Origin: Alkanindiges illinoisensis DSM 15370
Lineage (GTDB): Bacteria; Pseudomonadota; Gammaproteobacteria; Pseudomonadales; Moraxellaceae
Assembly (NCBI RefSeq): GCF_000619845.1
Contig: NZ_JHUX01000007.1
Span: 90,001-122,000, forward strand
Direction of reading: 5' to 3'
Length of the DNA: 32,000 bases
Every line of letters begins with the position of its first letter. Within the stretch, counting starts at the first letter, position 1. Made by a program: the position numbers and the translations under genes. The notes under the pieces were generated by a model. That model was not told where the DNA came from. It did no database searches and saw only the letters and a list, made by a program, of their open reading frames with translations. This document shows positions 1-31,458 of the stretch, piece by piece.

Positions 1-1
1 T

Positions 2-526
2 CCTATTATTAAATTTAGTCAAAATAATAAAAATGTCTGTTTATCAGGAACAACATTTTCATATAAAGATAATAATATAAATGTTGAGAATGAATGTTAT
101 ACATTTAATTTAAACAATAAAATTTATTTTAAAAAAATGCAAAAGAAAAAAGATATAAAACATGAACAAGGAGCTTTTCCAATTTTGTTTGAAAATAAAA
201 ATTTTTTATGTAATGGAATAAAATGTAAGGAAAGTGTTCTTACTAATGATGAACTAAAAGAAATATCAAATAATAATGTAAATAGTGAGCTTCGGTTTCT
301 TGTAAATGAAAGAGGATTTGATACAACTTATATTAATGCCTCCATTGATAATAGAACTTTATATATTGTTAGATATAGTGAAGGAGATAGTGAGCAAAAT
401 ACTATATATTTATCTTATTTTTTAAAGGGCTTATTTAAAACAAAGTTGTTAGGTGCTGTTAAGTCGTTTAAAGTAGATGGTAGCCAAAATATATATTTTA
501 ATGGAAGTAAAGTTACTTTAAATTAA
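2..526 (+). CDS. Hypothetical protein, 5'-truncated by the window edge (AT-rich, Asn/Lys-rich)
   Basis: Frame 2 is open from nt 2 to the TAA at 524-526. The ORF track only starts it at the internal Met at 137. A 175-codon open frame is very unlikely by chance in DNA this AT-rich. No family recognised. Confidence 0.5.
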   Translation, partial: PIIKFSQNNKNVCLSGTTFSYKDNNINVENECYTFNLNNKIYFKKMQKKKDIKHEQGAFPILFENKNFLCNGIKCKESVLTNDELKEISNNNVNSELRFLVNERGFDTTYINASIDNRTLYIVRYSEGDSEQNTIYLSYFLKGLFKTKLLGAVKSFKVDGSQNIYFNGSKVTLN

Positions 527-1374
527 GTGAAAGTTCTCAGCTTTTAAAGAAGAAACTTTAATTAATATAAATTATTAAAGTGAATTTTTGGTTGATTCTA
601 GAAATGATAATAAAGTATCAAGTAAATCGCAAAAAAATACAATTGATCCATTCAGTGGTTTCTGTACTTGTATTTCTGGGAAAAAAGAAGAGTAGATTAG
701 TATTTGGTTATAATACCACTAAATTAGAATCACAGATAGTCGTCCAAGATGGGGGAATATATTCTAAATGAAGAAGCAAATTAAATTTATAATTTTTACT
801 TATTTAATACAAGTAATGTATTAGATGGGTTCTATAAGGATAGAATTAATAAATTTAATAATTATACTATAGGTTCTTTAAGTCAATATTGTATGGATAA
901 ATTTGTTGAAGATAAAGAAAGTATAAAAATATAATTTCATCCCAAGAAAGTTAATTTAGATACACTAGCCTTTATAAAAGATATAATAGTGAGTATAAAT
1001 ATTTTAATAGTAAGGAATTTTTTGGAACAGATAGTGGTTTTCCTAATAAATATTTTTTCCAGCTTAATTAAATTACAATTAAAAATAAAGATAAAAATTT
1101 GAAATTGGTAAGTCTGATCTAGAGCAATATTTTTTACCGATAGATGGCTTAGAAGGACAAAGAAATAAGCTTGCTAATGTATTTATTTTTATATCGCAGA
1201 ATTAAATTCTAAGATATAAAAGAGAGAAATTTTCCCTCTTTTTCATCTGAATCTCCCTTTTCATTTGCCCATTTTTTGACTAATCTAGTCTCAAAATAAT
1301 CGACATGCATCCATAACGTATCAACTAATAGACGCAGTCGATATAACACAAAAAATTGAGTTGGGGGATAACTC

Positions 1375-2286
1375 ATGTTTTGCAGTGAATGTCGTGCCCA
1401 GAATAATCTGGTGGCGCGCTATTGCGTGGGCTGTGGCAGCGAATTAAAACATTTTCTTATTGATGATGAGCCAGCAATTGTACAGCCATCTATGCCTGCC
1501 TCCTCATTGATGCAGTCTGATATATGCTATAAATCGTTGTCCAGAAAAGAGCAGTATCAGGCAGTCATTGGCAGTAATCAGAATTATTATTTAAAGAAAT
1601 TTCTTGAATTTGATCGGGAAGGCCAGGGGAGGCCAAGCTGGCACTGGCCTGCCTTTTTTGTTACGTTTTACTGGATGCTGTATCGCAAGATGTGGCGTAA
1701 TGCCTTGCTGTATTTTGTATTGCCTTACGTGGCCTTAATTATTGTTGGTATTGCTGCCGGGATTATGGGTAGTGCCGGTGCACCAATTGCCGGGCTGTTA
1801 TATCTGGCACTCATGGTAGGTTTGTGGTTTGTACCACCATTATATGCTGATGCGTTGTACTATAATCACTGTCGGCAGGTCATTGCCAACGCTAGGCAGC
1901 ATACCAGCCATCCGCATCGTTTATACGGCATATTAAGTACCCGAGGCGGCACCAGTAATCTGTTTATCATTATTATTGTTTTTATTTCTTTTGTGGTGAT
2001 GATCGGTGTATTGGCAGCCATCGCGATTCCGGCTTATAACAATTATGCAATGCGTGCCAAAACGACGCAGGCTGCGACACTGGGCCAAAAAGCCACCAGT
2101 GCGGTGGATCATTATTATCAGCGCCATCATCAGTTTCCATCCAGTATGCTGGACACAGACCTGACCCAAACTTTGCCGCAAGCTGTAAAGGCCATTGAGA
2201 TTGATGATCAAACAGGCCAGATTAATGTGGTGTTAACAGGCTCAGGTTCTCGGGAAAGTGCACTTATCTTTAAGCCAGTGGTGTAA
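1375..2286 (+). CDS. Membrane protein fusing an N-terminal zinc ribbon, a DUF2628-like membrane domain and a C-terminal type IV pilin-like domain; apparently truncated by an in-frame TAA
   Basis: SD-like GGGGGA lies upstream of the ATG. CSECRAQNNLVARYCVGCG is a CxxC...CxxC zinc ribbon. YYLKKF...SWHWPAFFVTFYWMLYRKMW is DUF2628-like. IGVLAAIAIPAYNNYAMRAKTTQAA...AVDHYY matches the pilin alpha-1 helix and the following core. Confidence 0.8.
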   Translation: MFCSECRAQNNLVARYCVGCGSELKHFLIDDEPAIVQPSMPASSLMQSDICYKSLSRKEQYQAVIGSNQNYYLKKFLEFDREGQGRPSWHWPAFFVTFYWMLYRKMWRNALLYFVLPYVALIIVGIAAGIMGSAGAPIAGLLYLALMVGLWFVPPLYADALYYNHCRQVIANARQHTSHPHRLYGILSTRGGTSNLFIIIIVFISFVVMIGVLAAIAIPAYNNYAMRAKTTQAATLGQKATSAVDHYYQRHHQFPSSMLDTDLTQTLPQAVKAIEIDDQTGQINVVLTGSGSRESALIFKPVV

Positions 2287-2361
2287 GTAGGCGATACCAT
2301 TGTCTGGGACTGTAGCGGGCAATATATTGCTAAAGTTAATTTGCCACAGCAATGTCAGTAA
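2287..2361 (+). other. In-frame continuation after the TAA at 2284-2286, encoding a pilin C-terminal disulfide loop (VGDTIVWDCSGQYIAKVNLPQQCQ) and ending in tandem stops TAA TGA
   Basis: Direct translation of the same frame. The W-x-C ... LP-x-x-C pattern is the conserved D-region of type IV pilins. A double stop follows at 2359-2364. Confidence 0.7.
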
Positions 2362-2396
2362 TGAGCGATTAAAAGCAGCGGATTTAACGCTTATCT

Positions 2397-2747
2397 TTAA
2401 CCTGCCAATGTCGCGTAACTGGCTGGATCAAAACCTACCAGAATTTGCTCCCTGCTAACCAGCACTGGCCGTTTGATCATGCTGGGGTTGTCCTGTAAAG
2501 CCTGAAGCGTGTGCTGTGGGCTGGATAAAATAGCAGCCTGTTGCTCGGGGTTAAACTTGCGCCAAGTGGTGCCTTTTTTATTAAGTAAGGCATCAAGGCC
2601 GACACGGCTGGCCCAATGTTCAAGCGTGTTTAAATCAATGCCGTGTTTTTTATAATCATGAAATTCATAGCCCAACTGCTGAGTATCTAGCTGCTCAAAG
2701 GCTTTTTTCATGGTGCTGCAATTTTTAATACCGTAAACCGTTAACAT
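2397..2747 (-). CDS. yffB: ArsC/Spx-family protein, YffB-like
   Basis: MLTVYGIKNCSTMKKA...GTTWRK...MIKRPVL...GF closely follows the E. coli YffB pattern (YGIKNCDTIKKA, GTTWRK, IIKRPLL). Confidence 0.85.
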   Translation of the reverse strand: MLTVYGIKNCSTMKKAFEQLDTQQLGYEFHDYKKHGIDLNTLEHWASRVGLDALLNKKGTTWRKFNPEQQAAILSSPQHTLQALQDNPSMIKRPVLVSREQILVGFDPASYATLAG

Positions 2748-2850
2748 GACCTATCCTCAATAAGCAGGCAGCACATCATAGTCAATTGTGCTTGCACAAA
2801 TCCAATGAATATAAAGCTAGACAGTGATTTACGATCTTAAAAGACAGTGA

Positions 2851-3069
2851 TTAATTTCTGGACAGTTTAACCATGCTACAGGACACATATTTCTCCTGCT
2901 GGTTGGGGCCTAAAATATAGCAGGCTTCTTTACCCAGATCGTATTCATAAATGATACTTGAATTTTGTTTATTATTAAAAAAGCCCAGATAGGTAAACGT
3001 GCCAACACAGACTAGTAATAAGACTGTCAACAAGCTATAGAGTATGCGGTGAGATTTATTGGGGAACAT
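2851..3069 (-). CDS. Small hypothetical single-pass membrane protein (72 aa)
   Basis: ORF with one hydrophobic segment (ILYSLLTVLLLVCVGTFTYLGFF). No clear SD and no family recognised. Confidence 0.35.
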   Translation of the reverse strand: MFPNKSHRILYSLLTVLLLVCVGTFTYLGFFNNKQNSSIIYEYDLGKEACYILGPNQQEKYVSCSMVKLSRN

Positions 3070-3144
3070 AGTGGCTTTACTAATTTGTTATGTGGCCATA
3101 AAAAAGGATGATAAAAACTGAAAAGGCAAAAGCACATTCAGACA

Positions 3145-3305
3145 AAATGGAGAAAACCCGCGCCAATATCATCCTGATAGCGCGGGTCTCAAGTCAACGT
3201 CCTGTCTTTGCTTCCATACAGTATTGTAATGTCCTACACTACAAAACCTTTCCATCCTACGGCAGTCCTTCCTTTCTGGTCATCCTGACCGACTTCCCTG
3301 TGCCG
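3145..3305 (-). ncRNA. Csr/Rsm-family CsrA(RsmA)-sequestering sRNA (RsmY/RsmZ/CsrB-like); ends approximate
   Basis: The minus strand has 10 GGA motifs in about 160 nt, three of them as CAGGA(U/C)G. A GGUCAGGAUGACC hairpin lies at 3278-3290. The terminal GC hairpin ACCCGCGC/GCGCGGGU (3156-3187) has AUCAGGAUGAU in its loop and is followed by UUUUCUCCAUUUUG. A -10-like TATTCT sits at 3310-3315, with a GacA box upstream. Confidence 0.75.
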
Positions 3306-3362
3306 TAAGAGAATAATGCGCTTTTATTGTTTGTTTGAAAATAGTAAATTAACGTCATGTTA

Positions 3363-3380
3363 TGTACGCTCAGGCTTACA
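3363..3380 (-). promoter_or_regulatory. GacA/UvrY-type upstream activating palindrome (TGTAAGcctgagCGTACA on the minus strand)
   Basis: Matches 11 of the 12 specified positions of the consensus TGTAAG-N6-CTTACA. It is centred about 70 bp upstream of the inferred sRNA 5' end, as at rsmY/rsmZ/csrB promoters. Confidence 0.65.
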
Positions 3381-3424
3381 AAGCGTGAACACAGTCACAA
3401 AAGAAATAATTACGGAAAACTCAC

Positions 3425-4207
3425 TTAAAGCACATAATCAATCACAACTGGCGCATGGTCACTAAAGCGTTCGTCCCGGTAAATAAAGGCATTGGCGACC
3501 CGGTCGCGCCAGTCCGGGGACACCACATGGTAATCAATGCGCCAGCCCACATTATTGGCCCAGGCCTGCCCCCGATTAGACCACCAGGAGTATTCGTGCG
3601 TATCTGGACGATGAACCCGAAAGGCATCCACATAGCCTAATTCGTCATATAAGGTGTCCAACCAAGCGCGTTCATGTGGCAAGACGCCGGAATTTTTCTG
3701 GTTGCCTTTCCAGTTCTTGATATCAATTTCTTTATGCACAATGTTGTAATCACCGCAAACAATAATGGACTTGCCTTGTTCACGCCATTGCCTGAAATGA
3801 AGCAGCATTTCCTGTAAAAATAAATCTTTGCGCGCTTGTGCGTCATCACCGCTGGAGCCGGATGGCAGATATAGCGATGCCACTACAAAATTTTTGCCTT
3901 CGCTGGTTTGAAACTCCGCAGCCGTAAAACGGCCTTGGGTGTCACAAATATCAAAACCCAAGCCATTATTAATACTGCTAAACGGATGGCGGCTATAAAT
4001 GGCCGTGCCTGAATAACCGGGTTTTTCGGCATGGCACAGGTGCATGTGCCAGCCCGCAGGTTTATGTTCTTCCAGCCACTGGTGCGGTTGCAAGCGGGTC
4101 TCCTGCATGCAAACAATGTCGGCACCTGAATTTTCCAGCCACTGAAAAAACCCCTTGGCCGTGGCCGAGCGTAAACCATTTACATTAATTGACACCACCC
4201 GAAGCAT
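3425..4207 (-). CDS. xthA: Exodeoxyribonuclease III
   Basis: MLRVVSINVNGLRS, CMQETR, GDYN and SDHAPV are EEP-nuclease motifs. The ATG at 4207 has a GGGG SD-like element. The longest ORF extends to 4240 without an SD. Confidence 0.93.
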   Translation of the reverse strand: MLRVVSINVNGLRSATAKGFFQWLENSGADIVCMQETRLQPHQWLEEHKPAGWHMHLCHAEKPGYSGTAIYSRHPFSSINNGLGFDICDTQGRFTAAEFQTSEGKNFVVASLYLPSGSSGDDAQARKDLFLQEMLLHFRQWREQGKSIIVCGDYNIVHKEIDIKNWKGNQKNSGVLPHERAWLDTLYDELGYVDAFRVHRPDTHEYSWWSNRGQAWANNVGWRIDYHVVSPDWRDRVANAFIYRDERFSDHAPVVIDYVL

Positions 4208-4309
4208 TTTTGCCCCAGTGTCTAAATCCTTTGCTATCATGCGCGCTGATTACCTTGTATACCTTAACTTTCGTTGTTAAATAACCAATTAAATAAACAG
4301 GAGCCTGCC

Positions 4310-4960
4310 ATGTCATCTGTTCAGCCTTTTAGTCCTCAAGCATTGATCGAACTGGCATTAAAGCGTGGTGTGCTCAAGTTTGGTGAGTTTACTTTAAAAT
4401 CCGGTCGAATCAGCCCTTATTTTTTTAATGCTGGTTTGCTCAATGATGGCGAAGCATTGTCTCTGCTGGCCAGTGGTTATGCCGACAAGCTGATGAACTG
4501 CGAAAGCGTGAGCGTGATTTTTGGCCCGGCATACAAGGGGATTCCGTTTGTGGCTGCAACCGCATCGGCACTTTGGCAGCAGCATGGCGTGAATGTTCCA
4601 TGGGGCTTTAACCGCAAGGAAGCCAAGGATCATGGTGAAGGTGGGATGCTGGTGGGCGCGGATGTGAAAGGCCAGCGCGTATGGATTATTGATGATGTGA
4701 TTACGGCGGGCACGGCCATTCGTGAAGTGGTGGATATTCTGCAAGCTGCCGGGGCAACGATTGCAGGGGTACTGGTGGCGCTGGATCGTCAGGAAAAGGG
4801 ACAAGGGGAGTTATCGGCCATTCAGGAAGTGGAAAAGCAGCTGAATATTCCGGTACATGCGCTGATTACCATGCAGGATTTGATGGATTATTTAAAGAAA
4901 AATAACCGTAGTGATGATCTGGCTAAAATGCAGGATTATCGGGAGAAATATGGGGTTTAA
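4310..4960 (+). CDS. pyrE: Orotate phosphoribosyltransferase
   Basis: [18 protein letters not shown] plus the PRPP-binding [21 protein letters not shown] lies 7 nt before the ATG at 4310. The track ORF starts at an upstream TTG at 4274. Confidence 0.95.
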
Positions 4961-4983
4961 GTTGGTCAAATAATATGCTATTT

Positions 4984-5014
4984 TGTACACACTCAATATA
5001 AATTGGTGTGTACA
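4984..5014. promoter_or_regulatory. 9-bp perfect inverted repeat TGTACACAC-N13-GTGTGTACA at the vapB 5' end (candidate VapBC autoregulatory operator)
   Basis: Arms at 4984-4992 and 5006-5014, read directly from the sequence. Each arm contains a TGTACA palindrome. The repeat overlaps the possible vapB start codons. Confidence 0.4.
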
Positions 5015-5269
5015 GTGACCGAGTATATTACCCGTGTGTTTAAAAATGGCAATAGTCAGGCAGTACGTATTCCTGCTGAATTGCGTCTCAACAGTGACCG
5101 TGTGCAAATCTTTAAAAATGCGCAGGGTGATTTAGTGATTCACCCGATTCAGGCCAGCCGTGGTGCAGCATTCATGCAGGTGCTTCAAGGTTTTGATGAT
5201 GAATTTATCCATTTTATGGAGCAGGAACAGCAAGAGGCTTTACCACTACAAGAGCGTGAAACATTATGA
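5003..5269 (+). CDS. vapB: VapB-type antitoxin (SpoVT/AbrB-like)
   Basis: VFKNGNSQAVRIPAELRL is an AbrB/MazE-fold motif. It overlaps the downstream PIN gene by 4 bp. The start is uncertain (TTG 5003, GTG 5006 or GTG 5015). Confidence 0.85.
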   Translation: MVCTVTEYITRVFKNGNSQAVRIPAELRLNSDRVQIFKNAQGDLVIHPIQASRGAAFMQVLQGFDDEFIHFMEQEQQEALPLQERETL

Positions 5270-5673
5270 GGTTTATGCTCGATACCAATATTATTATTTA
5301 TCTCATTAAAAATAAGCCAGAAAGTGTTGCAGCCAAAGTAGATCAATTAAAACCTAATGATGATTTGGTGATGTCTTTTGTCACTTATGCAGAATTATTA
5401 AAAGGTGCTGAAAATAGCAGCCAAAAAGCGAGAGTACTTCATAACCTTGAAAAGCTCATTGAGCAAATTTCAGTGGTTTATCCCATTAATGCACAGATTT
5501 GCCAGCATTATGCTGTTCAGTTCTTAAGGCTCAAACAATCTGGAACTTTAATTGGTGCTAATGATTTATGGATTGCCTGTCATGCCTTGGCTGAACAAGC
5601 AGTCTTGGTGACTCATAATGTGCGTGAGTTTCAGCGGATTGATGGCTTAGTGATTGAAGACTGGGTAGAGTAA
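5266..5673 (+). CDS. vapC: VapC-type PIN-domain ribonuclease toxin
   Basis: MLDTNIIIY (N-terminal PIN Asp), ANDLWIA and THNVREFQRI. ATGA overlap with vapB. Confidence 0.9.
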   Translation: MRFMLDTNIIIYLIKNKPESVAAKVDQLKPNDDLVMSFVTYAELLKGAENSSQKARVLHNLEKLIEQISVVYPINAQICQHYAVQFLRLKQSGTLIGANDLWIACHALAEQAVLVTHNVREFQRIDGLVIEDWVE

Positions 5674-5757
5674 AACCAATTACAAGAATGATCCTATAAA
5701 AATGCAGTATTATTATGAAAAGTAAGGGGCATAATCATAAACTTTCAAAAGCCAAGT

Positions 5758-5991
5758 GTGTATAACTTTCAGTTATCAAATCAGATACTAGGAAATCTAG
5801 CTGGCGCTGGGTTTCTGGCTATGCTTTTTATAGATATGCTCACTTATTGTAATTTGCCTTATTTATCAGAGTTAGCAGATTGGTATTTCATATCGTTTGC
5901 TATTTGCATAATACCTTTCGGTGTATTTGTTATAACAATTTCTCGCCAAAAAAAGCAACCAGCATCTATACAGAAGAAAATTTTTCTATAA
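5758..5991 (+). CDS. Hypothetical small membrane protein (AT-rich)
   Basis: GTG-start ORF with two hydrophobic segments. It is lower in G+C than its neighbours. No family recognised. Confidence 0.4.
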   Translation: MYNFQLSNQILGNLAGAGFLAMLFIDMLTYCNLPYLSELADWYFISFAICIIPFGVFVITISRQKKQPASIQKKIFL

Positions 5992-5999
5992 GTGAGATA

Positions 6000-6287
6000 A
6001 TGGATAGGCTACCGAACTGGCTAAATTCTCTACTAATTACAGTTATTATTTATGTAGCTTATAATTTCATTAAGTGTTCTAGCTTGTTACAAGGACAGAC
6101 CATTATTGAAGATGGAAATTTTGCCATAAACAATAAGGGCAGTATTACTTATATAAGTCATGCTTACTATATCCAACATCGGCTATATGAACTGCGGTTG
6201 TGGTCAGGCGCTTTATTAGTATTTTATCTTATACCAGCCGTTTATTACCTGTTTTATGCACGACTTAAAAACTTGACACAAGTATGA
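6000..6287 (+). CDS. Hypothetical small membrane protein (AT-rich)
   Basis: The ATG at 6000 (MDRLPNWLNSLLITVIIYVAYNF...) is the plausible start inside track ORF 5880..6287. Two hydrophobic segments. No family recognised. Confidence 0.4.
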   Translation: MDRLPNWLNSLLITVIIYVAYNFIKCSSLLQGQTIIEDGNFAINNKGSITYISHAYYIQHRLYELRLWSGALLVFYLIPAVYYLFYARLKNLTQV

Positions 6288-6399
6288 CGTGAATTTTTCT
6301 TTCGAGGAATCTATTGGCTTATACAACGACAATTTTAAACCAAAAAAAGTACGTCATTCGCTATACTTCCGTATCTTTAAAAATTAGCGATAAAAAACA

Positions 6400-7353
6400 A
6401 TGCGCGTTCTGGTTGTGATGGATCCCATCGAAAATATTAACCTGAAAAAAGACACTACCATTGCCATGCTGTGGGCTGCCAAGCGCCGTGGACATACGAT
6501 TGGTTATGCATTGCAGGATGACCTGTTTATTGATGCAGGCAAAGCCTTTGGCACTATTGCAGCACTGGATGTGTTTGAAGATTATGCCGCGCGGAGCGGC
6601 CAGTATTTTGAACTGGGCGAAAAACAGCGCGAATCACTGGCGAGCTATGATGTGATCCTGATGCGCAAAGACCCGCCATTCGATCTGCGCTTTATCTATA
6701 CCACCTATATTTTAGAGCAGGCCGAACGTGAAGGCGCGTGGATTATTAACAAGCCGCAATCCCTGCGTGACTGCAATGAAAAACTGTTTGCCACCCAGTT
6801 TAGTGAGTTACAGGTATCCACACTGGTGACCTCGCAACAAAGCCTGATCCGTGAGTTTCTGGCACAGCATCAGGATATTATTGTCAAGCCTCTGGATGGC
6901 ATGGGTGGCACCGGGATTTTCCGCCTGACCGTCGGCAGTCCTAATGTGGGTTCAACGCTGGAAATGCTGACTATTTTGGGCACACAGCCGATTATGGCGC
7001 AGCGCTATATTCCTGAAATTGTAGATGGTGACAAGCGCATTTTAATGATTAATGGCGAGCCAGTGCCGTACTGCCTGGCGCGTATCCCGCAGGCTGGGGA
7101 AACCCGTGGTAATCTGGCCGCAGGTGGTCGTGGCGAAGCGCGGCCATTAACCGAAAAAGATAAAGCCATTGCCGCCAAAATTGGTCCTGTGTTACGGGAA
7201 AAAGGTCTGGTTTTTGTCGGGCTGGATGTGATTGGCGAGTACGTAACTGAAATTAATGTGACCAGCCCAACCTGTGTGCGTGAAATTGATGCACAGTTTG
7301 GCACCTCCATTGCCGATGACCTGTTTGCTGTGCTGGAACAGGGACGTGGCTGA
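6400..7353 (+). CDS. gshB: Glutathione synthetase (ATP-grasp)
   Basis: MRVLVVMDPIENINLKKDTT, KPLDGMGG and EINVTSPTC are typical prokaryotic GshB motifs. Confidence 0.95.
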   Translation: MRVLVVMDPIENINLKKDTTIAMLWAAKRRGHTIGYALQDDLFIDAGKAFGTIAALDVFEDYAARSGQYFELGEKQRESLASYDVILMRKDPPFDLRFIYTTYILEQAEREGAWIINKPQSLRDCNEKLFATQFSELQVSTLVTSQQSLIREFLAQHQDIIVKPLDGMGGTGIFRLTVGSPNVGSTLEMLTILGTQPIMAQRYIPEIVDGDKRILMINGEPVPYCLARIPQAGETRGNLAAGGRGEARPLTEKDKAIAAKIGPVLREKGLVFVGLDVIGEYVTEINVTSPTCVREIDAQFGTSIADDLFAVLEQGRG

Positions 7354-8584: not shown

Positions 8585-9685
8585 GTGGTTCAGGGGCAGG
8601 TAAAACAAATTAAGACCGTCATGATCATGGCAGCGGGCACAGGAGGACACGTATTTCCTGCGCTGGCCGTGGCTGAGCACCTGCGTGCGCAAGGCATTGA
8701 AATCCATTGGTTAGCAACCCGTACTGGCATGGAACATCGTCTGGTTGGCTCTAAAAATATTCCACTGCATCCGATTGATATTCAGGGTTTGCGTGGCAAT
8801 GGCCTCAAGCGTTTGATTACTGCACCGTTTAAAATCATGGCAGCAACACTGGCGGCCATGCGTCTGATGCGCCAGCTAAATATTGATGCCGTGATTGGTT
8901 TTGGGGGTTATGTGGCCGGTCCTGGTGGACTGGCTGCGCGCTTGCTGGGTTTGCCACTGGTGATCCATGAGCAAAATGCCATTGCCGGCTTTACCAATAC
9001 CCAACTGGCACGCCTGTCCGCATTGGTATTACAGGCTTTTCCGAATACTTTTACTGAATCTCAAAAAGTCAAAACCACTGGCAATCCGGTGCGTGCCGAT
9101 ATTGCCAGTTTGCCAGAACCGCAAGTTCGCTATGCCGAACGCGGCAATTTGCCGTTAAATATTCTGGTGGTTGGCGGTTCGCTAGGTGCCCAGGCTTTAA
9201 ATGAACGGATTCCAGCAGCACTGGCTGGTCTGGATATTCCCTTAAATATCATGCATCAGTGCGGTCAGCAGCAGTTGCAGGCCACCCAGCAGCGTTATAT
9301 TGATTTGGCCAGTAGCCAGCTAAATGTGCAGGTAATGCCTTTTGTGGAAGACATGGCCAATGCCTATGCACGTGCCGATTTGATTATTTGCCGTGCCGGT
9401 GCCTTAACAGTGACTGAAATTGCAACCGCAGGGGTTGCAGCGGTATTTGTGCCATTGCCCAGTGCGGTAGACGACCATCAAACCGCCAATGCCCGCTATC
9501 TGGTAGATTGCGGTGCGGCATTACTATGTCCGCAAGCCAGCCTGACTCCCCAATCGCTTCAGGCCGCGCTGCAACCCATCATGAAACGTGCCACCTTGCA
9601 GGCCATGGCTGAAAAAGCCCGACAGCAGGCGCATCCGCAGGCCACTCGTCAGGTGAGTGAATTTCTGTTGTCATTGTCGCATTAA
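8585..9685 (+). CDS. murG: UDP-GlcNAc:undecaprenyl-PP-MurNAc-pentapeptide GlcNAc transferase
   Basis: MIMAAGTGGHVFPALAVA, VGGSLGAQALN and DDHQTANA. The GTG start gives an N-terminal length like Acinetobacter MurG. Confidence 0.95.
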   Translation: MVQGQVKQIKTVMIMAAGTGGHVFPALAVAEHLRAQGIEIHWLATRTGMEHRLVGSKNIPLHPIDIQGLRGNGLKRLITAPFKIMAATLAAMRLMRQLNIDAVIGFGGYVAGPGGLAARLLGLPLVIHEQNAIAGFTNTQLARLSALVLQAFPNTFTESQKVKTTGNPVRADIASLPEPQVRYAERGNLPLNILVVGGSLGAQALNERIPAALAGLDIPLNIMHQCGQQQLQATQQRYIDLASSQLNVQVMPFVEDMANAYARADLIICRAGALTVTEIATAGVAAVFVPLPSAVDDHQTANARYLVDCGAALLCPQASLTPQSLQAALQPIMKRATLQAMAEKARQQAHPQATRQVSEFLLSLSH

Positions 9686-9715
9686 TTTTGTATTACGCCC
9701 AAATTTGAGTTCATT

Positions 9716-11173
9716 ATGACGCCATCCAATATTTCATCGGCTCAGGCCAAGCAACTGATCAAGATTCCGGAAATGCGCCGCATCCGGCATATTCATTTTG
9801 TTGGTATTGGCGGCGCTGGCATGTGTGGCATTGCAGAAGTGCTTAAAAATCAGGGCTATGAGATTTCCGGTTCAGATTTAAAGCCCAGCAAGACCACTGA
9901 GCGCTTAAATGAGCAGGGCATCACGGTGCATTTTGGTCATCAGGCCAGCAATATTGAAGGCGCTGATGTGCTGGTGGTGTCCACGGCAATTGACCGTGAA
10001 AATCCGGAAATCCGGCAAGCCATCAGCCAGCGCATTCCTGTGGTGCGCCGTGCTGAAATGCTGGGTGAGCTGATGCGTTATCGGCATGGCATTGCAGTAG
10101 CAGGTACCCATGGCAAAACCACCACCACCAGCCTGCTGACCTGTATGCTAGCCGAGGAAAACCTTGATCCCACTTATGTGATTGGCGGCCTGCTCAACCG
10201 CAGCGGTGTCAATGCGGCACTGGGTGCCAGCCGTTATCTGGTGGCTGAAGCCGATGAAAGTGATGCGTCATTTTTATACCTGCAACCAATGGCGGCCATT
10301 GTTACCAATATTGATGCTGACCACATGGAAACCTATGGCGGCAGCTTTGAAAAACTCAAAGATACGTTTATCCAGTTTTTGCATAACCTGCCGTTTTATG
10401 GGCTGGCGGTGGTGTGTGGTGATGATGCCGTGATTCGCGAGCTGTTGCCGCGCATTGGCCGTCCCGTGCTCACTTATGGCTTTGGCGAAGAAAACGACAT
10501 CCGTGCCGTGGAGGTCGAGCAATCGGGCATGCAAACGCATTTCACCGTGCTGCGCAAGGATCGGGAGCCACTACGGCTAACCATTAATCAGCCTGGCTTG
10601 CACAATGTGCTCAATGCACTGGCTGCTATTGGCGTTGCTACCGATGAAGGTGTGTCGGACGCGGCCATCAGCCGTGCACTGGAAGGCTTTTCAGGCGTGG
10701 GCCGCCGCTTCCAGATTCAGGGCGAATTTGCACAGGATAATGGCAATATTAAGCTGGTGGATGATTATGGCCATCATCCCAAGGAAGTGGAAGCCACTAT
10801 TAAGGCTGCACGTCAAAGCCATCCGGATCGTCGTCTGGTGATGCTGTTTCAGCCGCATCGTTTTACCCGTACTCGCGACTGTTTTGAAGACTTTGTTGAG
10901 GTGCTGTCGCAGGTGGATGTGCTGTTATTGCTGGAAGTTTATCCGGCAGGTGAAAAGCCGATTGTTGGTGCTGACAGCCGCAGTCTGGCTCGCAGTTTGC
11001 GCCTGCGCGGTCAGGTGGAGCCGATTCTAGTTGATCCGGTTGAAAGCCAGTTACCTGTAGTGTTACAAAATGTGTTAAAAGCAAATGACTTGCTACTGAC
11101 GCAAGGTGCTGGCAATGTGGGTGCCATTTCAGTGGAGCTGGCGCAGCAAGGCTTGTATTTAAAGGCAAAATAG
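9716..11173 (+). CDS. murC: UDP-N-acetylmuramate--L-alanine ligase
   Basis: [16 protein letters not shown] and the Mur-ligase P-loop [10 protein letters not shown]. Confidence 0.96.
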
Positions 11174-11405
11174 TCATTAAACGGTCATATTGAGTGGTTT
11201 TTGCCATAGGTATGGCAGGTAGAGCCGGGCACTATTTTTAAGCAGGACAGGCCAAAAACAAATTTGGTCATTTGCGCAGATTTGTCTAACATGACGGACT
11301 GCTGCAGAGGAGTGCTCATGCTAGATTGAGCCTTTTTTGGTGCGACTAGCCCGCTATTGATGCCGGGTTATCGTAAAAGAATGTTTTAAACGATGGACGT
11401 ATAGC

Positions 11406-12380
11406 GTGTCACACATACAAAGCACGGATTTTGGCAAAGTTGCAGTATTGTTTGGGGGTAACTCAGCCGAACGTGAGGTTTCCTTAAATAGTGGTCAGGC
11501 CGTCCTGCAGGCCTTGCTGGAACAGGGTATTAATGCAGAAGCGTTTGATCCGGCGGTACGTTCAATCACCGAAATTACTGCCTATGACCGTGCTTTTATT
11601 GTGCTGCATGGCCGTGGTGGTGAAGATGGCCAGATTCAGGGCCTGCTGGAATGGTTAAACCTGCCTTATACCGGCAGTGGCGTGCTGGCGTCGGCGCTGG
11701 GTATGGATAAAGCCAAAACCAAGCAATTGTGGCAAGGCTGCGGCATGCCGACAGCACCATATCGCCTGCTGGACCAGAATACTGATTTTGCCCAGGTGGT
11801 ACAGGAACTGGGTTTGCCGCTGATTATTAAGCCCGTGCATGAAGGCTCCAGCATTGGCATGAGCAAGGTGGAAACCCTTGAGCAACTCCAGCCGGCCTAT
11901 GAGCAGGCTGCTGTCCATGATGCGGTGGTAATGGCAGAGCGCTGGATTACCGGCCGTGAATTTACTGTCGTGATTTTAAACGGTCAGGCTTTGCCAGTGA
12001 TTCGCCTGCAACCGCCCAGTGATGCCGCTTTTTATGATTATGAAGCCAAATACCAGCGTAATGACACCCAGTATGGCATTCCTTGCGGTTTAAGCCATGA
12101 CGCTGAGCAACAATTACAGGCACTGGCCTTACGTGCCTTTAATGCGGTGGGTGCTACCGGCTGGGGCCGTATCGATGCCATGCAGGATGAGCAGGGCAAT
12201 TTCTGGCTGCTGGAAGTCAATACCGTACCCGGTATGACCGATCATTCGCTGGTACCCATGGCTGCCAAGGCTATCGGACACAGTTTTGCCGAACTTTGTC
12301 AGCTAATTTTGCAGCAAACCCTTTCTCCGGCACAGGCTCAAACAAACCCTCAAACCCAGCCTATGTCAAGCGTGGGTTAA
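11406..12380 (+). CDS. ddl: D-alanine--D-alanine ligase
   Basis: [20 protein letters not shown] and the ATP-grasp [14 protein letters not shown] start. Confidence 0.95.
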
Positions 12381-12387
12381 GGTCATT

Positions 12388-13254
12388 ATGGCACAGCTTC
12401 CCATTTCCATACGCCGTAAAGCCCCCTCCGTGCAGGGGATCAGCAGCAGTGCCAATCGTGCAGGCCGCTGGGAGCGCGCTTCCTGGTGGGGTAGCTGGTT
12501 GCTGGTGATTCTGGCCGTGATTCTATGCGGCGTAGGGTTTTGGTCCATGCTCAACACCATGCGCCATGCCCCTGCTGCAACTGTCAGGGTGGCGGGTGAG
12601 CTGAATCCGCTCCAGCAACAATTACTGCAAAACAAATTGCAGCCACTGGTCAAAGAAGGCTTTTTCACCACGGATCTGGAACGTTTACGTGATGCGGCCT
12701 TAACCTTGCCCTGGGTAGACCGGGTGGTCGTCACCCGGCATTGGCCCAACGGCATGGTGGTGCGTGCCACGCCACGGCATCCGATTGCACGCTGGGGCAG
12801 TGGTCGCCTGCTAAGTGACAGTGGCCATATCTTTGTAGAAGCCCGTTATGTAGATCGCCGCGACCTGCCGCTATTACACGGTCCGGCCAGCCATTCGGTA
12901 CAACTCATGCAGCAATACCGGCAAATCAACCAGTGGTTTGCCCCTTTAGGCATGCAGCTTAAGGAATTGCACCTGACCGACCGCATGACCTGGTTTATGC
13001 AGTTTAATACCGGCATGCGGGTTATTGTTGATCAGGATCAGACCTTAACCAAGCTGCACCGCTTAAGCCAGTTGGGTTTAACCGAATTAAAGGCACAATG
13101 GCCCAATATTGTGGCTGTTGATTTGCGCTACCGTAACGGCCTTGCCTTACAGTGGAAAAATACACAACCGCCAAAAATTGTAGAAGGCAAGTTTGTGATT
13201 GAACCACAACTGCCAGTGGTTACTCCTCTCGCTCAACCTGTGGTCAATCAATGA
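12388..13254 (+). CDS. ftsQ: Cell division protein FtsQ
   Basis: Position between ddl and ftsA. An N-terminal basic region is followed by one TM segment (WLLVILAVILCGVGFW) and a periplasmic domain. Confidence 0.85.
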   Translation: MAQLPISIRRKAPSVQGISSSANRAGRWERASWWGSWLLVILAVILCGVGFWSMLNTMRHAPAATVRVAGELNPLQQQLLQNKLQPLVKEGFFTTDLERLRDAALTLPWVDRVVVTRHWPNGMVVRATPRHPIARWGSGRLLSDSGHIFVEARYVDRRDLPLLHGPASHSVQLMQQYRQINQWFAPLGMQLKELHLTDRMTWFMQFNTGMRVIVDQDQTLTKLHRLSQLGLTELKAQWPNIVAVDLRYRNGLALQWKNTQPPKIVEGKFVIEPQLPVVTPLAQPVVNQ

Positions 13255-13299
13255 GTGGAAGATTGATGAGACTTGAACACATAACGCATGGTAAATGTC

Positions 13300-14568
13300 A
13301 TGAATGAAGCGGTTCCATCTGTTGTTGCCATAGATATTGGAACACACAAGGTATCGGTGCTGATTGGCCGGATTCATGCACCTGACCAGATTGAAGTGAT
13401 TGGGATGGCGCATGCGCCCAACCGGGGCATGAGCAAGGGTATTATCCGTAATCTGGATAAAGTGGTGGCCGCCATCAAGGATGCCGTGTCACAAGCGGAA
13501 GACATGGCCGATTGCCGCATCCATACCGCATGGGTGGCGATTCCCAGTGCCGAGCTGAAAAGCTTTAATGCCTCTGGCCGCACGCCGGTGATGAACCAGA
13601 CCATTACCACCACTGAAATTGTACGTACCCTGGAAATGGCCAAAAGCAGCCATTTGATGCCGGATCATTACCTCACCAATGCAGTACCGCTAGGCGTTGC
13701 CATTGATGATCAGCCGGAATGGGTAGATCATCCCATCAATATGTCGGGCAATTTTATTACCGGCCATTATCACCTGATGATGCTGCCCATCAATACCATG
13801 CAAAATCTGGATAAAGCGCTAAAAAGCGCCGGAATTGGTGTGGAGCGCACCATTATTTCAACGCTGGCCACCAGTGAAGCGGTGTTGCTTAAAGATGAAA
13901 AAGAATATGGCGTGTGCATGGTGGATATAGGCGCTGGTACTACCAACATTGCCGTGTATCTGGAAAACCGCCTGATTCTAAGCCACACCCTGCAAAAGGG
14001 TGGCGAGCATGTGACCCGTGATATTGCTTCTGTGTTGCAAACCTCAACCGAACAGGCTGAAAACCTGAAAATCCGCTATGGCTGTGTGGACTTGTCGGCC
14101 ATTAAGCCGGATCAGATGATCCAGATTCCCGGCATTGGCATTGCACCGGGCATGATCATCAGCCGGATTGAACTGGCCGATATCATTGTGGCGCGCTACG
14201 AAGAAATTTTTGAGGAAGTGCGCCAGCAGCTGGAACAAAGTGGCGCCATTAATGTTCTGCGTCATGGTGTGGTGCTTACTGGAGATGCCTGCCAGATTGA
14301 AGGTGCAGTTGCGCTGGCACGCCGCGTACTAGGTGTGTCTGCCCATCTGGGTAATCCGCCACTGGCTGTAGATATCAGCGAAGAAAAACGTCCGCTGCTG
14401 CGCCGTTCCATTTATGCCACGGCCAGTGGCCTGCTGATGTATAGCCAGAATGAGCAACAACGTGCCACCGAAGTGGGAGCGGAAGAACAAGCCAGTGACG
14501 GCTGGTTGCAGCAATATGTAGTACAGCCGGTACAGAATATGCTCGAAAAGCTGCGCCAGCTGGTTTAG
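13300..14568 (+). CDS. ftsA: Cell division protein FtsA
   Basis: VVAIDIGTHKVSVLIG and VDIGAGTTNIAV are actin-like ATPase motifs. The ATG at 13300 (MNEAVPS...) is preferred over 13288. Confidence 0.95.
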   Translation: MNEAVPSVVAIDIGTHKVSVLIGRIHAPDQIEVIGMAHAPNRGMSKGIIRNLDKVVAAIKDAVSQAEDMADCRIHTAWVAIPSAELKSFNASGRTPVMNQTITTTEIVRTLEMAKSSHLMPDHYLTNAVPLGVAIDDQPEWVDHPINMSGNFITGHYHLMMLPINTMQNLDKALKSAGIGVERTIISTLATSEAVLLKDEKEYGVCMVDIGAGTTNIAVYLENRLILSHTLQKGGEHVTRDIASVLQTSTEQAENLKIRYGCVDLSAIKPDQMIQIPGIGIAPGMIISRIELADIIVARYEEIFEEVRQQLEQSGAINVLRHGVVLTGDACQIEGAVALARRVLGVSAHLGNPPLAVDISEEKRPLLRRSIYATASGLLMYSQNEQQRATEVGAEEQASDGWLQQYVVQPVQNMLEKLRQLV

Positions 14569-14791
14569 TGCATTAGTTTAGTGACTGCGGTTTTAAGTGA
14601 TTAATCCCGCAGTAAGCGTTTAAATTATGCTGTGAGTTTGTTGTTGAATATCCGTTTTCACTTGACAGTGAGCATAGGGCAACGCATGCTAATTTATTTA
14701 CTAAGCTTTCTTTTATTTAACGTTTTTTACTTAACTCAGGCAGTGCTACGGGCATACAAGCTGCCATACAAATCTTGGAGACCAAAAGGTC

Positions 14792-16012
14792 ATGTCCTCA
14801 TTTACGCTAATTGAAGATGAAGTAGTCGACAACAATGGGCAGGCCCGTTTTACCGTTTTTGGTGTGGGTGGCGGCGGTGGCAATGCGGTACAACACATGG
14901 TTGAGTCAGAAATTTCTGGCGTAAAGTTTGTGTGTGCCAATACGGACAAGCAGGCGCTGGACCGGATGAAAGCGCCCTTTAATGTGCAGCTTGGCCAGCA
15001 AAGTACCCGCGGTCTGGGTGCTGGTGCCAATCCGGAAGTGGGTCGCACCTCGGCTGAAGAAGCACGCGACCAAATCCGTGACCAGCTTGAAGGCACGGAC
15101 ATGGTATTTGTCACTGCCGGTATGGGTGGTGGTACAGGGACAGGTGCTGCGCCAGTTGTGGCGGAAGTGGCCAAGGAAATGGGTATTCTGACCGTTGGTG
15201 TGGTTACTACCCCCTTTGGTTTTGAAGGCCGCAAGCGCCAGAGATCGGCTGAAAAAGGCATTGAAGAACTGGAACGCCACGTTGACTCACTCATTATTAT
15301 TCCCAATGAAAAACTGCTGAGTGTGTATGGCGATATTTCCATGAAGGAAGCCTTTAAAAAGGCTGATGATGTGTTACTGAACGCAGTACGCAGTATTTTT
15401 GATCTGGTGGTGAATCACGGTCACATTAACCTTGACTTCGCCGACCTGAAAACTGCCATGAGCACCCGTGGCTATGCCATGATGGGTATTGGAGCCAGCC
15501 GTGGTGAAGACCGCGCACGTCAGGCCGCAGAAATGGCAATTCGCAGTCCGCTGCTGGATCAGGTGCGTCTGGAAAATGCCAAGGGTGTGTTGATTAACAT
15601 TACCAGTGGTGATGACATCAAGCCGCGCGAAGTACAAATGATTTCCAATGTGGTCAGCCAGATTGTTGACCTGGATGAAGGCGACATTTTCTACGGTACA
15701 GTGTTTGACCCTGAAGCACGTGATGAATTGCGCGTCACCGTGATTGCCACGGGCCTGAATCGCGACCCGGTAGATTTTTCTACACCTGTTGCACGTCCTG
15801 CAGCCGCACCAGCACCAGTTGCCCAGCCACAGCCTGCGCCTGTAGCCCCTGTTGCTGCCAGCCAGCCAGTGGATGAGGATGATGCTCCTGCCATTAGCCG
15901 TCGTGCGCCTTCTGTTGCACCACAGCCTGCTCCAGCGCCGCAGCCAGCACCAGCGGCTCGTCCAGCGCCCATGAGCATTCAGGATTACCTGAAGAACCAG
16001 CAAAAGAAATAA
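14792..16012 (+). CDS. ftsZ: Cell division GTPase FtsZ
   Basis: GVGGGGGNAV and GMGGGTGTGAAPV tubulin signatures. A long Pro/Ala-rich linker leads to the C-terminal peptide SIQDYLKNQ. Confidence 0.97.
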   Translation: MSSFTLIEDEVVDNNGQARFTVFGVGGGGGNAVQHMVESEISGVKFVCANTDKQALDRMKAPFNVQLGQQSTRGLGAGANPEVGRTSAEEARDQIRDQLEGTDMVFVTAGMGGGTGTGAAPVVAEVAKEMGILTVGVVTTPFGFEGRKRQRSAEKGIEELERHVDSLIIIPNEKLLSVYGDISMKEAFKKADDVLLNAVRSIFDLVVNHGHINLDFADLKTAMSTRGYAMMGIGASRGEDRARQAAEMAIRSPLLDQVRLENAKGVLINITSGDDIKPREVQMISNVVSQIVDLDEGDIFYGTVFDPEARDELRVTVIATGLNRDPVDFSTPVARPAAAPAPVAQPQPAPVAPVAASQPVDEDDAPAISRRAPSVAPQPAPAPQPAPAARPAPMSIQDYLKNQQKK

Positions 16013-16056
16013 TCTTATTGCACTTGCCGCCTTGTGTTGGCAGGTACTTTCAAAAA

Positions 16057-16095
16057 ACAGGCCTGTAGATCAGTTGGATCTACAGGCCTGTTTTC
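16057..16095 (+). terminator. Rho-independent terminator after ftsZ
   Basis: 15-bp perfect stem ACAGGCCTGTAGATC/GATCTACAGGCCTGT with loop AGTTG, followed by TTTT. Confidence 0.8.
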
Positions 16096-16161
16096 TATTC
16101 AGGCCAATAATGTTAATTTAGGCGCCTTGCTTTTTAACACAGTTTTTTAAGATAGACCTTT

Positions 16162-17064
16162 ATGCTGAAACAGCGAACCATCAAACAAGTGATCAGAGCC
16201 AGTGGCATTGGACTGCATAGCGGTAAAAACGTATTTATCAATTTTTTACCGCATGTGATTGATGGTGGCATTGTATTTCGGCGCATTGACCTTGACCCGC
16301 CAGTCGATATTCCTGCCAATGCCTTGCTGGTACAGGAAACGGTCATGTCGTCCAATCTGGTCAAGGGGGAAGCCCGCATTGGCACGGTTGAACACCTGAT
16401 GAGTGCACTGGCAGGTATGGGCATTGATAACATTATTATTGAGGTGTCTGCGCCGGAAATTCCCATTATGGACGGTAGCGCCGGGCCATTTATTTATTTG
16501 CTGCAACAGGCAGGCTTGCAGGAGCAGGACGCGGCCAAAAAATACATTTGCATCCGGCAGCCTGTTGAAGTCTGTGTGGATGACAAGCGTGCGGCGTTTT
16601 TACCCCATCATGGTTTTAGCGTGCAGTTTACCATCGACTTTGATCATCCGGCCTTTAGCGAAGAATACAAGTCCGCTGAGGTGGATTTTTCTACTACTTC
16701 ATTTATTGAGGAAATCAGTCAGGCGCGCACCTTTGGCTTTATGCGTGACCTGGAATACCTGCGCCAGCATAATCTGGCGCTTGGTGCCACGCTGGACAAT
16801 GCAATTGCCGTGGATGAGCAGGGTGTGGTGAATGAAGAAGGCTTGCGTTTTAGCGATGAGTTTGTGCGGCATAAAATGCTGGATGCCATTGGGGACTTAT
16901 ACCTGATTGGCCACAGCATTATTGGCCGCTTTGAAGGCTATAAATCCGGACATGCACTCAACAATCAACTACTACGTAAAATTTTAGCCACGCCGGAATG
17001 TTATGAAATTGTGACATTTGATGACGATGTAAATTGCCCGATTTCATACGTAAAAGTGAGTTAA
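16162..17064 (+). CDS. lpxC: UDP-3-O-acyl-N-acetylglucosamine deacetylase
   Basis: [27 protein letters not shown] and [15 protein letters not shown]. Confidence 0.96.
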
Positions 17065-17165: not shown

Positions 17166-17603
17166 TCATTTTTTGCTTGCCAAACGTTGTAGCGCTTCGC
17201 TAAGCTCGCGGTCATGAATGAGGGTGGCAGCTTCTAAAATGGCTTGCCGGGTTGGCTCATCCAGTGGTGGTAAAGGCAGGTGTGGCACTACTTTTGGTGC
17301 TGGTTTTGCTTCTACAATGACCCTGATGGCACGTAAATTTTTAAACTCGGTGATGTTGCGAAGTTGCTTAACGTAATGCGTTTGTAAATATCGTAATTGG
17401 CTGACCGCTGCATATTGTTCAGCAGCAACACACAGGATTCCTTCTTGAAAGGAAACTACTTGCCAGTTTTCATGTTGAGGTAACACTGGCTTTGTCAATT
17501 GCGTAAGTTTCTCCAGATAGAGCATTTGGGCTTGGAGAGATTGCAAACCCCCTGTTTTTAAATCCTGATGATGTGTGGCAAAGGCGTGAACTGGACGCTT
17601 CAT
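17166..17603 (-). CDS. DUF721 / DciA-like protein
   Basis: Size, the pattern W..VSF..GIL.V........SQLRY....YVKQL.......L..I.V, and the conserved position near lpxC next to an M23 peptidase, as in Pseudomonas and Acinetobacter. Recognised from memory only. Confidence 0.5.
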   Translation of the reverse strand: MKRPVHAFATHHQDLKTGGLQSLQAQMLYLEKLTQLTKPVLPQHENWQVVSFQEGILCVAAEQYAAVSQLRYLQTHYVKQLRNITEFKNLRAIRVIVEAKPAPKVVPHLPLPPLDEPTRQAILEAATLIHDRELSEALQRLASKK

Positions 17604-30362: not shown

Positions 30363-31458
30363 GTGGAAATTAATCCGTATCTGGTTCGGTTAAAGGACTT
30401 GCGTGAGCGTGGTCAAACGCTTAGGGGGTATCTTTGACTACGACTATAAAAAAGAGCGACTGGAAGAAGTATTACGCGAACTAGAAGACCCTGCCATCTG
30501 GAATGACCAGAGCCGTGCACAGGCAATGGCCAAGGAAAAGGGCGAGCTGGAAAATATTGTGGGTGTACTGGATGATTTAAGCCAGCAGCTGGAAGATGCA
30601 CAAGCCATGCTGGATCTGGCGGTGGAAGCAGATGAAGAAAGCCTGCTGGATGATGTGGATAGTGAGCTTAAAACCGCCGATGAAGCAGTGGGCAAGCTGG
30701 AATTTCGCCGCATGTTCAGTAACCAGATGGATCCCAATAACTGCTTTCTGGATATTCAGGCCGGTTCCGGGGGTACAGAAGCACAGGACTGGGCTTCCAT
30801 GTTACTGCGCATGTACCTGCGCTGGATTGAGCGTCATGGCTTTAAGGCTGAAGTCATGGAAGAATCTGATGGCGATGTAGCCGGGATTAAAAGTGCAACT
30901 ATCCGGGTGGAAGGCGAGTATGCCTTTGGCTGGCTTAGAACTGAAACCGGCGTGCATCGTCTGGTACGCAAGTCGCCATTTGATAGCGGTAACCGTCGTC
31001 ATACCTCGTTTTCAGCGGTATTTGTGTCGCCAGAAGTGGATGACAATATTGAAATTGATATCAATCCGGCCGATGTCCGCACTGATACTTACCGGGCTTC
31101 CGGTGCGGGTGGCCAGCACATTAATAAGACCGATTCGGCAGTGCGTTTGACGCACGTTCCCACAGGAACGGTGGTGGCCTGCCAGAATGAACGCAGCCAG
31201 CATGCCAACCGTGACCGTGCCTGGAAGCTGTTACGTGCCAAACTGTACGAGCTGGAAATCCAGAAGCGTAATGAAGCCCAACAGGCGCTAGAAGCCACCA
31301 AGTCGGATATTGGCTGGGGTAGCCAGATTCGTTCCTACGTACTGGATGATTCACGCGTGAAAGACTTGCGGACTGGCGTAGAAAATTCCAATACCGGTGC
31401 GGTACTGGATGGTGATCTGGATAAATTTATTGAAGCCAGTTTAAAAATGGGGCTTTGA
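30363..31458 (+). CDS. prfB: Peptide chain release factor 2, expressed via a programmed +1 frameshift at 30432-30437
   Basis: Frame 0 (GTG 30363; an in-frame ATG at 30342 is an alternative) encodes [24 protein letters not shown] and then TGA. The classic AGGGGG-TAT-CTT-TGA-C site is present. The +1 frame continues [12 protein letters not shown]... with the SPF and GGQ motifs. Confidence 0.95.

Follow-up and report, generated by a model that had tools for sequence, protein, structure and literature searches.

The 32,000-nucleotide stretch of the Alkanindiges illinoisensis DSM 15370 genome analysed here (contig NZ_JHUX01000007.1, positions 90,001 to 122,000; hereafter the window) carries near its start a gene whose product, WP_026471714.1, is named in RefSeq as "DUF2628 domain-containing protein" only. 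The reading frame of this gene runs on past the TAA at 2284-2286, staying open for 24 codons that read VGDTIVWDCSGQYIAKVNLPQQCQ until it reaches TAA TGA; the initial annotation had described both the end of the open reading frame (ORF) and its same-frame continuation, and its coordinates and translation proved exact. Overall, we consider it likely that the locus represents a family of proteins in which an uncleavable pilin head is fused to a polytopic inner-membrane scaffold, and that this strain carries a real and recent nonsense allele (Q304*) of the gene. The features of the locus are as follows.

1363..1368 (+): Shine-Dalgarno-like GGGGGA, 6 nucleotides 5' of the ATG, read from the sequence
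1375..2286 (+): truncated coding sequence, 303 amino acids plus TAA (RefSeq WP_026471714.1, Alkanindiges illinoisensis)
1378..1446 (+): predicted N-terminal cytoplasmic zinc ribbon, residues 2-24, with C3, C6, C17 and C20
1606..1869 (+): DUF2628 membrane module, residues 78-165, from Pfam, hydropathy and charge over 118 sequences, and AlphaFold2 helices
1945..1956 (+): GGTS motif (G191 G192 T193 S194) directly before the last transmembrane helix, on the presumed cytoplasmic face according to the topology
1960..2037 (+): last transmembrane helix, residues 196-221, from the PilE alignment and column counts
2038..2283 (+): retained, putatively periplasmic part of the pilin head, residues 222-303 (alpha1-C, alpha-beta loop, strands beta1-beta3), from AlphaFold2 and Foldseek
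2284..2286 (+): premature TAA (Q304*); orthologues have CAA (strain NFYY 23406, L001) or CAG (A. hydrocarboniclasticus H1, L002, and a metagenomic relative, L017)
2287..2358 (+): 24 former codons, untranslated, for beta4 and the disulfide-bonded D-region (W311, C313 ... L323 P324 ... C327)
2308..2310 (+): GAC (Asp312), GGC (Gly) in all close relatives; derived in the window lineage, 3' of the stop
2359..2364 (+): original tandem stop codons TAA TGA, from the sequence and orthologue comparison

Establishing what the uninterrupted protein looks like is a prerequisite for interpreting the stop. We ran Pfam on the conceptual 328-residue read-through product, with cut-offs of 23 bits for DUF2628, 22 bits for Pilin and 25 bits for Zn_Ribbon_1. 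DUF2628 (PF10947) matched residues 78-165 at 39.6-39.8 bits, above its cut-off, and Pilin (PF00114) matched residues 227-328 at 28.2 bits over model positions 2-108 of 108, likewise above its cut-off. Zn_Ribbon_1 (PF13240) scored 21.3 bits, under its cut-off, with the CxxC-x10-CxxC motif present; homologues reach 25-31 bits with the same model, and all four zinc-ribbon cysteines are kept in 101-102 of the 102 family members having that segment. The actual 303-residue product gave no Pilin match at E <= 0.01, and the RefSeq name therefore mentions DUF2628 only. Within the DUF2628 module we recognise an aromatic interfacial segment (89-103), an RKMWRN loop and a transmembrane hairpin (110-132 and 139-160).

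The C-terminal part of the intact protein is a pilin by sequence and by fold. A PDB sequence search found Neisseria PilE at E = 1.3e-10, and the C-terminal half of the last transmembrane helix, IGVLAAIAIPAY, is homologous to pilin alpha1-N (Gly14..Pro22..Tyr24). In our alignment of 118 family members, which underlies all column counts below, G211 is invariant and P219 is present in 117 sequences, marking a Gly14/Pro22-type alpha1-N that runs into a long helix. The AlphaFold2 model of an intact orthologue that is 94% identical (P0001; built with 118 sequences) has a mean predicted local distance difference test score (pLDDT) of 88. It comprises a small N-terminal ribbon, a disordered linker (30-49), helices over 57-103, helical membrane segments over 107-176 and a helix at 180-190, followed by a four-residue break at GGTS (191-194), a single 57-residue helix (195-251) and strands at 271-276, 283-287, 296-305 and 308-316. 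Full-length gonococcal pilin (1AY2) was the top Foldseek match in the PDB (E = 2.3e-4, TM-score 0.60 normalised by target), with Burkholderia PilA structures among the further matches; only the pilin part of the full model was matched there, and nothing at E < 1 was found for the DUF2628 part. Because of the Foldseek matches to 1AY2 and PilA together with the PilE sequence match, we assign the pilin to type IVa: the pilin domain of the intact family protein is real, complete and of the major-pilin kind. The combination of zinc ribbon, DUF2628 and a complete pilin domain that the initial annotation had read from the letters is thus borne out by Pfam, the PilE match, AlphaFold2 and Foldseek.

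The annotated stop falls at the end of strand beta3 and removes beta4 (308-316) together with the D-region that holds W311, C313, L323, P324 and C327. The continuation had been taken for the conserved W-x-C...LP-x-x-C D-region of pilins, and the alignment agrees: W311 and C313 are invariant (C313 in 118/118), and L323, P324 and C327 are each at least 90% conserved (C327 in 117/118). Both cysteines of the predicted disulfide lie past Q304* and are lost with it. Intact orthologues possess a four-stranded sheet and a disulfide loop, while the 303-residue product is without beta4 and without either cysteine.

We compared the locus with its closest relatives to establish how the stop arose. The window DNA is approximately 93% identical to that of A. 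illinoisensis strain NFYY 23406 and approximately 84% identical to that of A. hydrocarboniclasticus H1, and synteny with both is kept downstream through arsC-family, xthA-like and pyrE-like genes. The close orthologues are all uninterrupted (328-331 residues), as are more distant homologues, and they carry a glutamine codon (CAA or CAG) in place of the TAA. In the 90%-identity cluster, all ten full-length members have 328 residues and Gln304, the window protein being the only one of 303 residues; one C-terminal fragment that spans the site has Gln304 as well. Since the close orthologues are uninterrupted with a Gln codon at this position, the stop is most simply read as a strain-private Q304* caused by a single C>T transition at 2284 (CAA>TAA). 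Past the stop, 22 of the 24 residues agree with those of the NFYY orthologue; the stop itself and G312D, at a position that is variable in the wider family, account for all the differences, and the nucleotide sequences differ there by one synonymous and one non-synonymous change. This identity therefore reflects homology rather than chance. Slipped-strand phase variation was ruled out, as the site has no repeat or homopolymer.

The age of the lesion was examined through the ratio of non-synonymous to synonymous substitution rates (dN/dS, Nei-Gojobori) among three Alkanindiges lineages. Over the whole gene this ratio comes to about 0.09; in the head alone it is 0.05-0.15, and in the 24 codons after the stop 0.06-0.24. 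When polarised with A. hydrocarboniclasticus, the changes derived in the window lineage amount to 13 synonymous and 4 non-synonymous ones, G312D among the latter. Neither relaxed selection nor further decay is visible in dN/dS, in the derived changes or in the post-stop frame, and the nonsense mutation is therefore recent. Taken together, these comparisons point to a real and recent mutation, an ordinary strain-specific lesion, which was the first of the options raised by the initial annotation.

A second option was that of a sequencing or assembly error, under which the real codon at 2284-2286 would be CAA and the full 328-residue protein would be made. Such an error would account for a stop that occurs in one strain only and is followed by 24 intact codons, and the second assembly available may rest on the same reads. 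However, that assembly, a Logan assembly of SRR3313971 (L016), is 100% identical to window positions 1-4717 and carries the same TAA, so that two assemblies from different pipelines agree over 4.7 kb. An assembler artefact is unlikely for this reason. The change is moreover a substitution in a non-repetitive context, not an indel in a homopolymer, and a second private substitution, G312D, lies 24 nucleotides downstream. We consider an error at this codon improbable.

How the pilin part is anchored bears on whether it could ever be processed. The initial annotation had noted that the hydrophobic helix lacks the prepilin G/F site and Glu5, and this holds in all 118 sequences: Gly-1, Phe+1 and Glu5 are absent from every family member. 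V202 lies opposite Glu5 of PilE in the alignment, in a column that contains L, F, V, A or I in 118/118, and segment 196-221 has not a single acidic residue in any of the sequences. The position in register with -1 is occupied by a hydrophobic residue, and the pilin-like helix begins only at residue ~196. A K/R-G-G-T-S motif (G191, G192 and T193 in 118/118, S194 in 117/118) stands 5-6 residues upstream of where Gly-1 would be. Pilin-free DUF2628 proteins end in the same manner, with a basic helix, GG[T/V/I]x, one last transmembrane helix and a stop; RGGIS occurs in Actinomycete proteins, and GGTN, GGVN and GGTH occur in pilin-free proteins that bear a zinc ribbon. The motif is therefore part of the DUF2628 scaffold, and GGTS as a relic prepilin-peptidase site was rejected on the same grounds. 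Because Gly-1, Phe+1 and Glu5 are missing and GG[T/V]x recurs in pilin-free proteins, the pilin part is very probably never cleaved.

A rival explanation, which we hold to be very unlikely, is that the prepilin peptidase PilD cuts at the invariant K/R-G-G|T-S, making the zinc ribbon-DUF2628 part a giant leader and releasing a pilin that lacks Glu5. Gly-1 is the main determinant of PilD cleavage, and GGTS resembles a class III signal peptide in being invariant, in following a basic residue and in preceding a hydrophobic helix on what appears to be the cytoplasmic face. Against this, pilin-free, headless and other-head proteins likewise carry GG[T/V/I]x ahead of a transmembrane helix, the motif is 5-6 residues farther from Gly14/Pro22 than the canonical site, and it is accompanied by neither Phe+1 nor Glu5.

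With cleavage set aside, the membrane topology of the unprocessed fusion can be considered. Across the 118 sequences, loop 104-109 has on average 2.2 K+R and 0 D+E, loop 161-195 has 5.8 K+R and 2.4 D+E, loop 133-138 is short and non-basic, and segment 89-103 consists of 15 aromatic, weakly hydrophobic residues. By the positive-inside rule, which would place the basic loops 104-109 and 161-195 in the cytoplasm, we infer an internal N-terminus, an interfacial helix, a transmembrane hairpin, a cytoplasmic helix, a last helix running outward and a periplasmic head. The J-domain (HPD motif) that forms the N-terminus of some variants must be cytoplasmic, in agreement with this arrangement, and two conserved cysteines in the head agree with a periplasmic location. 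The periplasmic orientation of the pilin fold that the initial annotation had predicted thus fits both the positive-inside rule and the J-domain variants.

We next consider how widespread this architecture is. Searching 5.8 billion proteins yielded 383 matches, most of them 310-330 residues long with the same three Pfam domains, and a profile search of 1.84 billion representatives (50% identity level) returned 525 clusters at E <= 1e-30, a lower bound on family size; most of the best 150 profile matches aligned over nearly the full profile length. The family is found mostly in Betaproteobacteria and in some Gammaproteobacteria, named sources being Gallionellaceae, Rhodocyclaceae, Burkholderiales, Vitreoscilla, Methylophaga thiooxydans, Scleromatobacter humisilvae, mine-drainage metagenomes and Moraxellaceae. 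NCBIfam has no model near its cut-off for the window family, and our literature search turned up no characterisation of the zinc ribbon-DUF2628-pilin architecture, DUF2628 being mentioned in two papers and in passing only. With at least 525 clusters the architecture is not rare, and the family can already be seen in databases, although no characterised example was found. Orthologues were not seen to end at the equivalent of 2286 with unconserved sequence downstream, nor was a Pilin match wanting, and the architecture is common yet uncharacterised; nothing that would fully overturn the initial annotation was thus encountered.

The family is also modular. Some members keep the scaffold and an alpha1-N-like helix under another head: in P0158 (476 residues) an FGE-sulfatase domain takes the place of the pilin head, and in P0128, P0130, P0195, P0215 and P0244 unrelated sequences do so. 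At the other end, P0213 and P0225 (664-724 residues) have a DnaJ J-domain (HPD) instead of the zinc ribbon and a C-terminal extension after the pilin head. Heads may be missing altogether: a syntenic orthologue in the Moraxellaceae metagenome-assembled genome (MAG) PMG_235 (P0007, at 380-1066 of L003), which adjoins an arsC-family gene, stops right after the last transmembrane helix, and P0018 is similar. These two proteins, of 228-229 residues, keep the zinc ribbon, DUF2628, the GGT motif and the last transmembrane helix, with the alpha1-N signature GILAAIAIPAY decayed in both; tblastn found no pilin remnant. Because head-swapped variants and headless syntenic orthologues exist, the scaffold is self-sufficient, and its periplasmic heads have been acquired, swapped and lost.

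What the truncation does to the window protein can be weighed in this light. The AlphaFold2 model of the truncated product has alpha1 and three strands, with a modest drop in pLDDT, to 79-80 at its end. Since the deleted elements are invariant, we infer that the head is probably inactivated and possibly degraded. The scaffold may persist and work despite the truncation, as in the headless Moraxellaceae orthologues, and the Q304* allele resembles the opening stage of a loss of the head that a neighbouring lineage has already completed. Within Alkanindiges, however, dN/dS indicates that purifying selection has so far acted on the head.

It is conceivable that in Alkanindiges the entire gene has become a functionless relic in decay, the stop being one step of its loss, in line with the loss of the head in sister Moraxellaceae lineages and with the stop in the window copy. 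We give this little credence, as all parts of the gene are under strong purifying selection in the three Alkanindiges lineages (dN/dS ~0.09), ten environmental or isolate sequences at least 90% identical are intact, and headless orthologues retain the scaffold at approximately 60% identity. Most improbable of all is the leaky stop that had been the third option, that is, programmed or leaky read-through yielding both 303- and 328-residue isoforms: the frame is open past the stop and encodes a conserved structural element, but every orthologue has a sense codon at the site and in none is the stop conserved, TAA followed by G is an efficient terminator context in bacteria, and tRNA and Rfam scans of the window were empty, so that the window holds no tRNA, suppressor or known RNA element for recoding.

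We therefore return to the uncleavable pilin-head fusion with a recent Q304* allele as the likely explanation, against which four points weigh. The Logan reads may be those of the deposited genome, which would make a systematic read error possible. Gene neighbourhoods are unconserved and without prepilin-type genes, so that genomic context does not speak for a connection with type IV pili. The topology, non-processing and function of the family have been deduced by computation. Finally, AlphaFold2 still folds the truncated head, although AlphaFold2 does not measure stability.

The neighbourhood was compared between Alkanindiges, the Moraxellaceae MAG and three further metagenome or assembly loci. 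Neighbours differ between loci, comprising nif genes and an esterase, ribE and sodB, dnaX and a thioesterase, or LysM and arsC. A regular-expression scan found no prepilin-type genes within 6-8 kb in 22 loci or anywhere in the window, and type IV pilus genes were likewise found neither near the gene in the 22 loci nor in the window; the neighbourhood check suggested at the outset thus revealed neither conserved neighbours nor prepilin-signature ORFs. A promoter and terminator scan showed nothing relevant above shuffled expectation.

Several further observations concern the surroundings of the gene. Upstream, window positions 1-1240 are not homologous to strain NFYY, homology to which starts at 1240; in the Logan contig, this segment is the end of a 309-residue gene that follows a LysM-domain gene. 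Downstream, between the arsC-family and xthA-like genes, a 72-residue ORF with one hydrophobic segment (2851-3069, reverse strand) counts as a predicted gene in the Logan contig; it matched no Pfam model. A strain-variable spot at 4961-6327, between a pyrE-like gene (4274-4960) and gshB (6400-7353), contains a MazE/AbrB-type antitoxin (5003-5269), an overlapping PIN-domain toxin (5266-5673) and small membrane ORFs; NFYY has unrelated sequence there. Positions 8585-17064 hold a partial dcw cluster (murG, murC, ddl, ftsQ, ftsA, ftsZ) and then lpxC, beyond which lie a DciA-like gene (17166-17603, reverse strand), an M23 peptidase, aceE/aceF, guaB, glmM, pdxH and recJ, all of which is ordinary housekeeping context. 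Finally, the release factor 2 gene (30364-31458, forward strand; PCRF and RF-1 domains) has a programmed +1 frameshift site of the classic type, AGGGGGTATCTTTGAC, at 30423-30438. Its frame 0 runs from a GTG start at 30364 to a TGA stop at 30435-30437, and the listed ORF 30403-31458 is the +1 frame.

Regarding its origin, the fusion is best accounted for as follows. The ancestral scaffold, which also occurs by itself, has a zinc ribbon and the DUF2628 module, after which a basic cytoplasmic helix leads through a GG[T/V]x turn into the final transmembrane helix. In the window family this final helix has been joined in-frame to a type IVa major pilin, beginning at pilin residue ~6-13, placing a complete pilin head (alpha1-C, four-stranded sheet and disulfide D-region) on an uncleavable periplasmic anchor. 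Canonical PilD processing and filament polymerisation would be impossible for such a protein, because it is without a class III signal peptide, Phe+1 and Glu5.

As for function, the role that we would tentatively place first, while stopping short of calling it probable, is that of a transmembrane adaptor or sensor, by analogy with the proposal made for zinc ribbon-YARHG proteins. An exchangeable periplasmic head (pilin, FGE-sulfatase or others) would in this case act together with a cytoplasmic module, zinc ribbon or J-domain, that is exchangeable as well. The version with a pilin head would resemble unassembled pilin of the membrane pool. A more specific and, in our view, doubtful extension is that the protein acts as a membrane-tethered mimic of membrane-pool pilin, docking onto factors that recognise unassembled pilins and relaying or buffering their state to the cytoplasm. 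Candidates for docking would be the pilus assembly platform or alignment complex, PilS-type pilin-sensing kinases and pilin-modifying enzymes, and the relay might proceed via the zinc ribbon or, in the J-domain variants, via DnaK. If this were true, pilus-bearing Beta- and Gammaproteobacteria would carry an unrecognised stand-alone regulator or sensor of pilus biogenesis, and nature would have supplied loss-of-head variants in the Q304* allele and in the headless orthologues of Moraxellaceae.

The pilin fold is known from type IV filaments, the subunits of which are cleaved and polymerise. A conserved family of pilin-head fusions under purifying selection suggests a non-filament use of the pilin fold. 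There is also a lesson for annotation, in that one stop codon erases the Pfam pilin match and leaves the DUF2628 name.

Compared with type IVa pilins (Neisseria PilE, 1AY2/2HI2; Burkholderia PilA, 9JRV/9IME), the family shares an alpha1 with the G-ILAAIAIPAY-QDY signature, a four-stranded antiparallel sheet and a C-terminal W-x-C...LP-x-x-C disulfide loop. Unlike them, the window protein lacks both a short leader and Gly-1/Phe+1/Glu5. It is polytopic and its pilin part begins only at residue ~196, its gene does not lie beside pilus genes, and selection on its head is purifying, not diversifying. A premature stop in a pilin has consequences in P. aeruginosa PAO579, where PilA108 puts a C-terminally truncated pilin head into the envelope and its new FTF C-terminus activates AlgW, a gain of function on envelope-stress signalling (PMC3684759). 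PilA108, however, is a canonical processed pilin, whereas the window product is a fusion that ends in ...KPVV and is without PilA108's aromatic motif; nothing suggests a similar gain of function here.

For zinc ribbon-YARHG proteins, transmembrane signalling has been put forward as an experimentally untested proposal (Coggill & Bateman 2012, PMC3355149). Like the window family, these proteins have a zinc ribbon at the N-terminus inside the cell and an extracytoplasmic domain beyond a membrane span; they differ in having a single span and another external domain and in occurring mostly in Gram-positive bacteria, and homology is shown for the zinc ribbon alone. Stand-alone zinc ribbon-DUF2628 proteins (P0295, P0296 and P0299; P0281 from an Actinomycete) share with the family the N-terminal CxxC..CxxC, the NxDYY...W-N/H-W-xAF...W-x-LYRKM core, the GG[T/V]x turn and the last transmembrane helix. 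They end a few residues past that helix, whereas the window family extends it into pilin alpha1 and the head.

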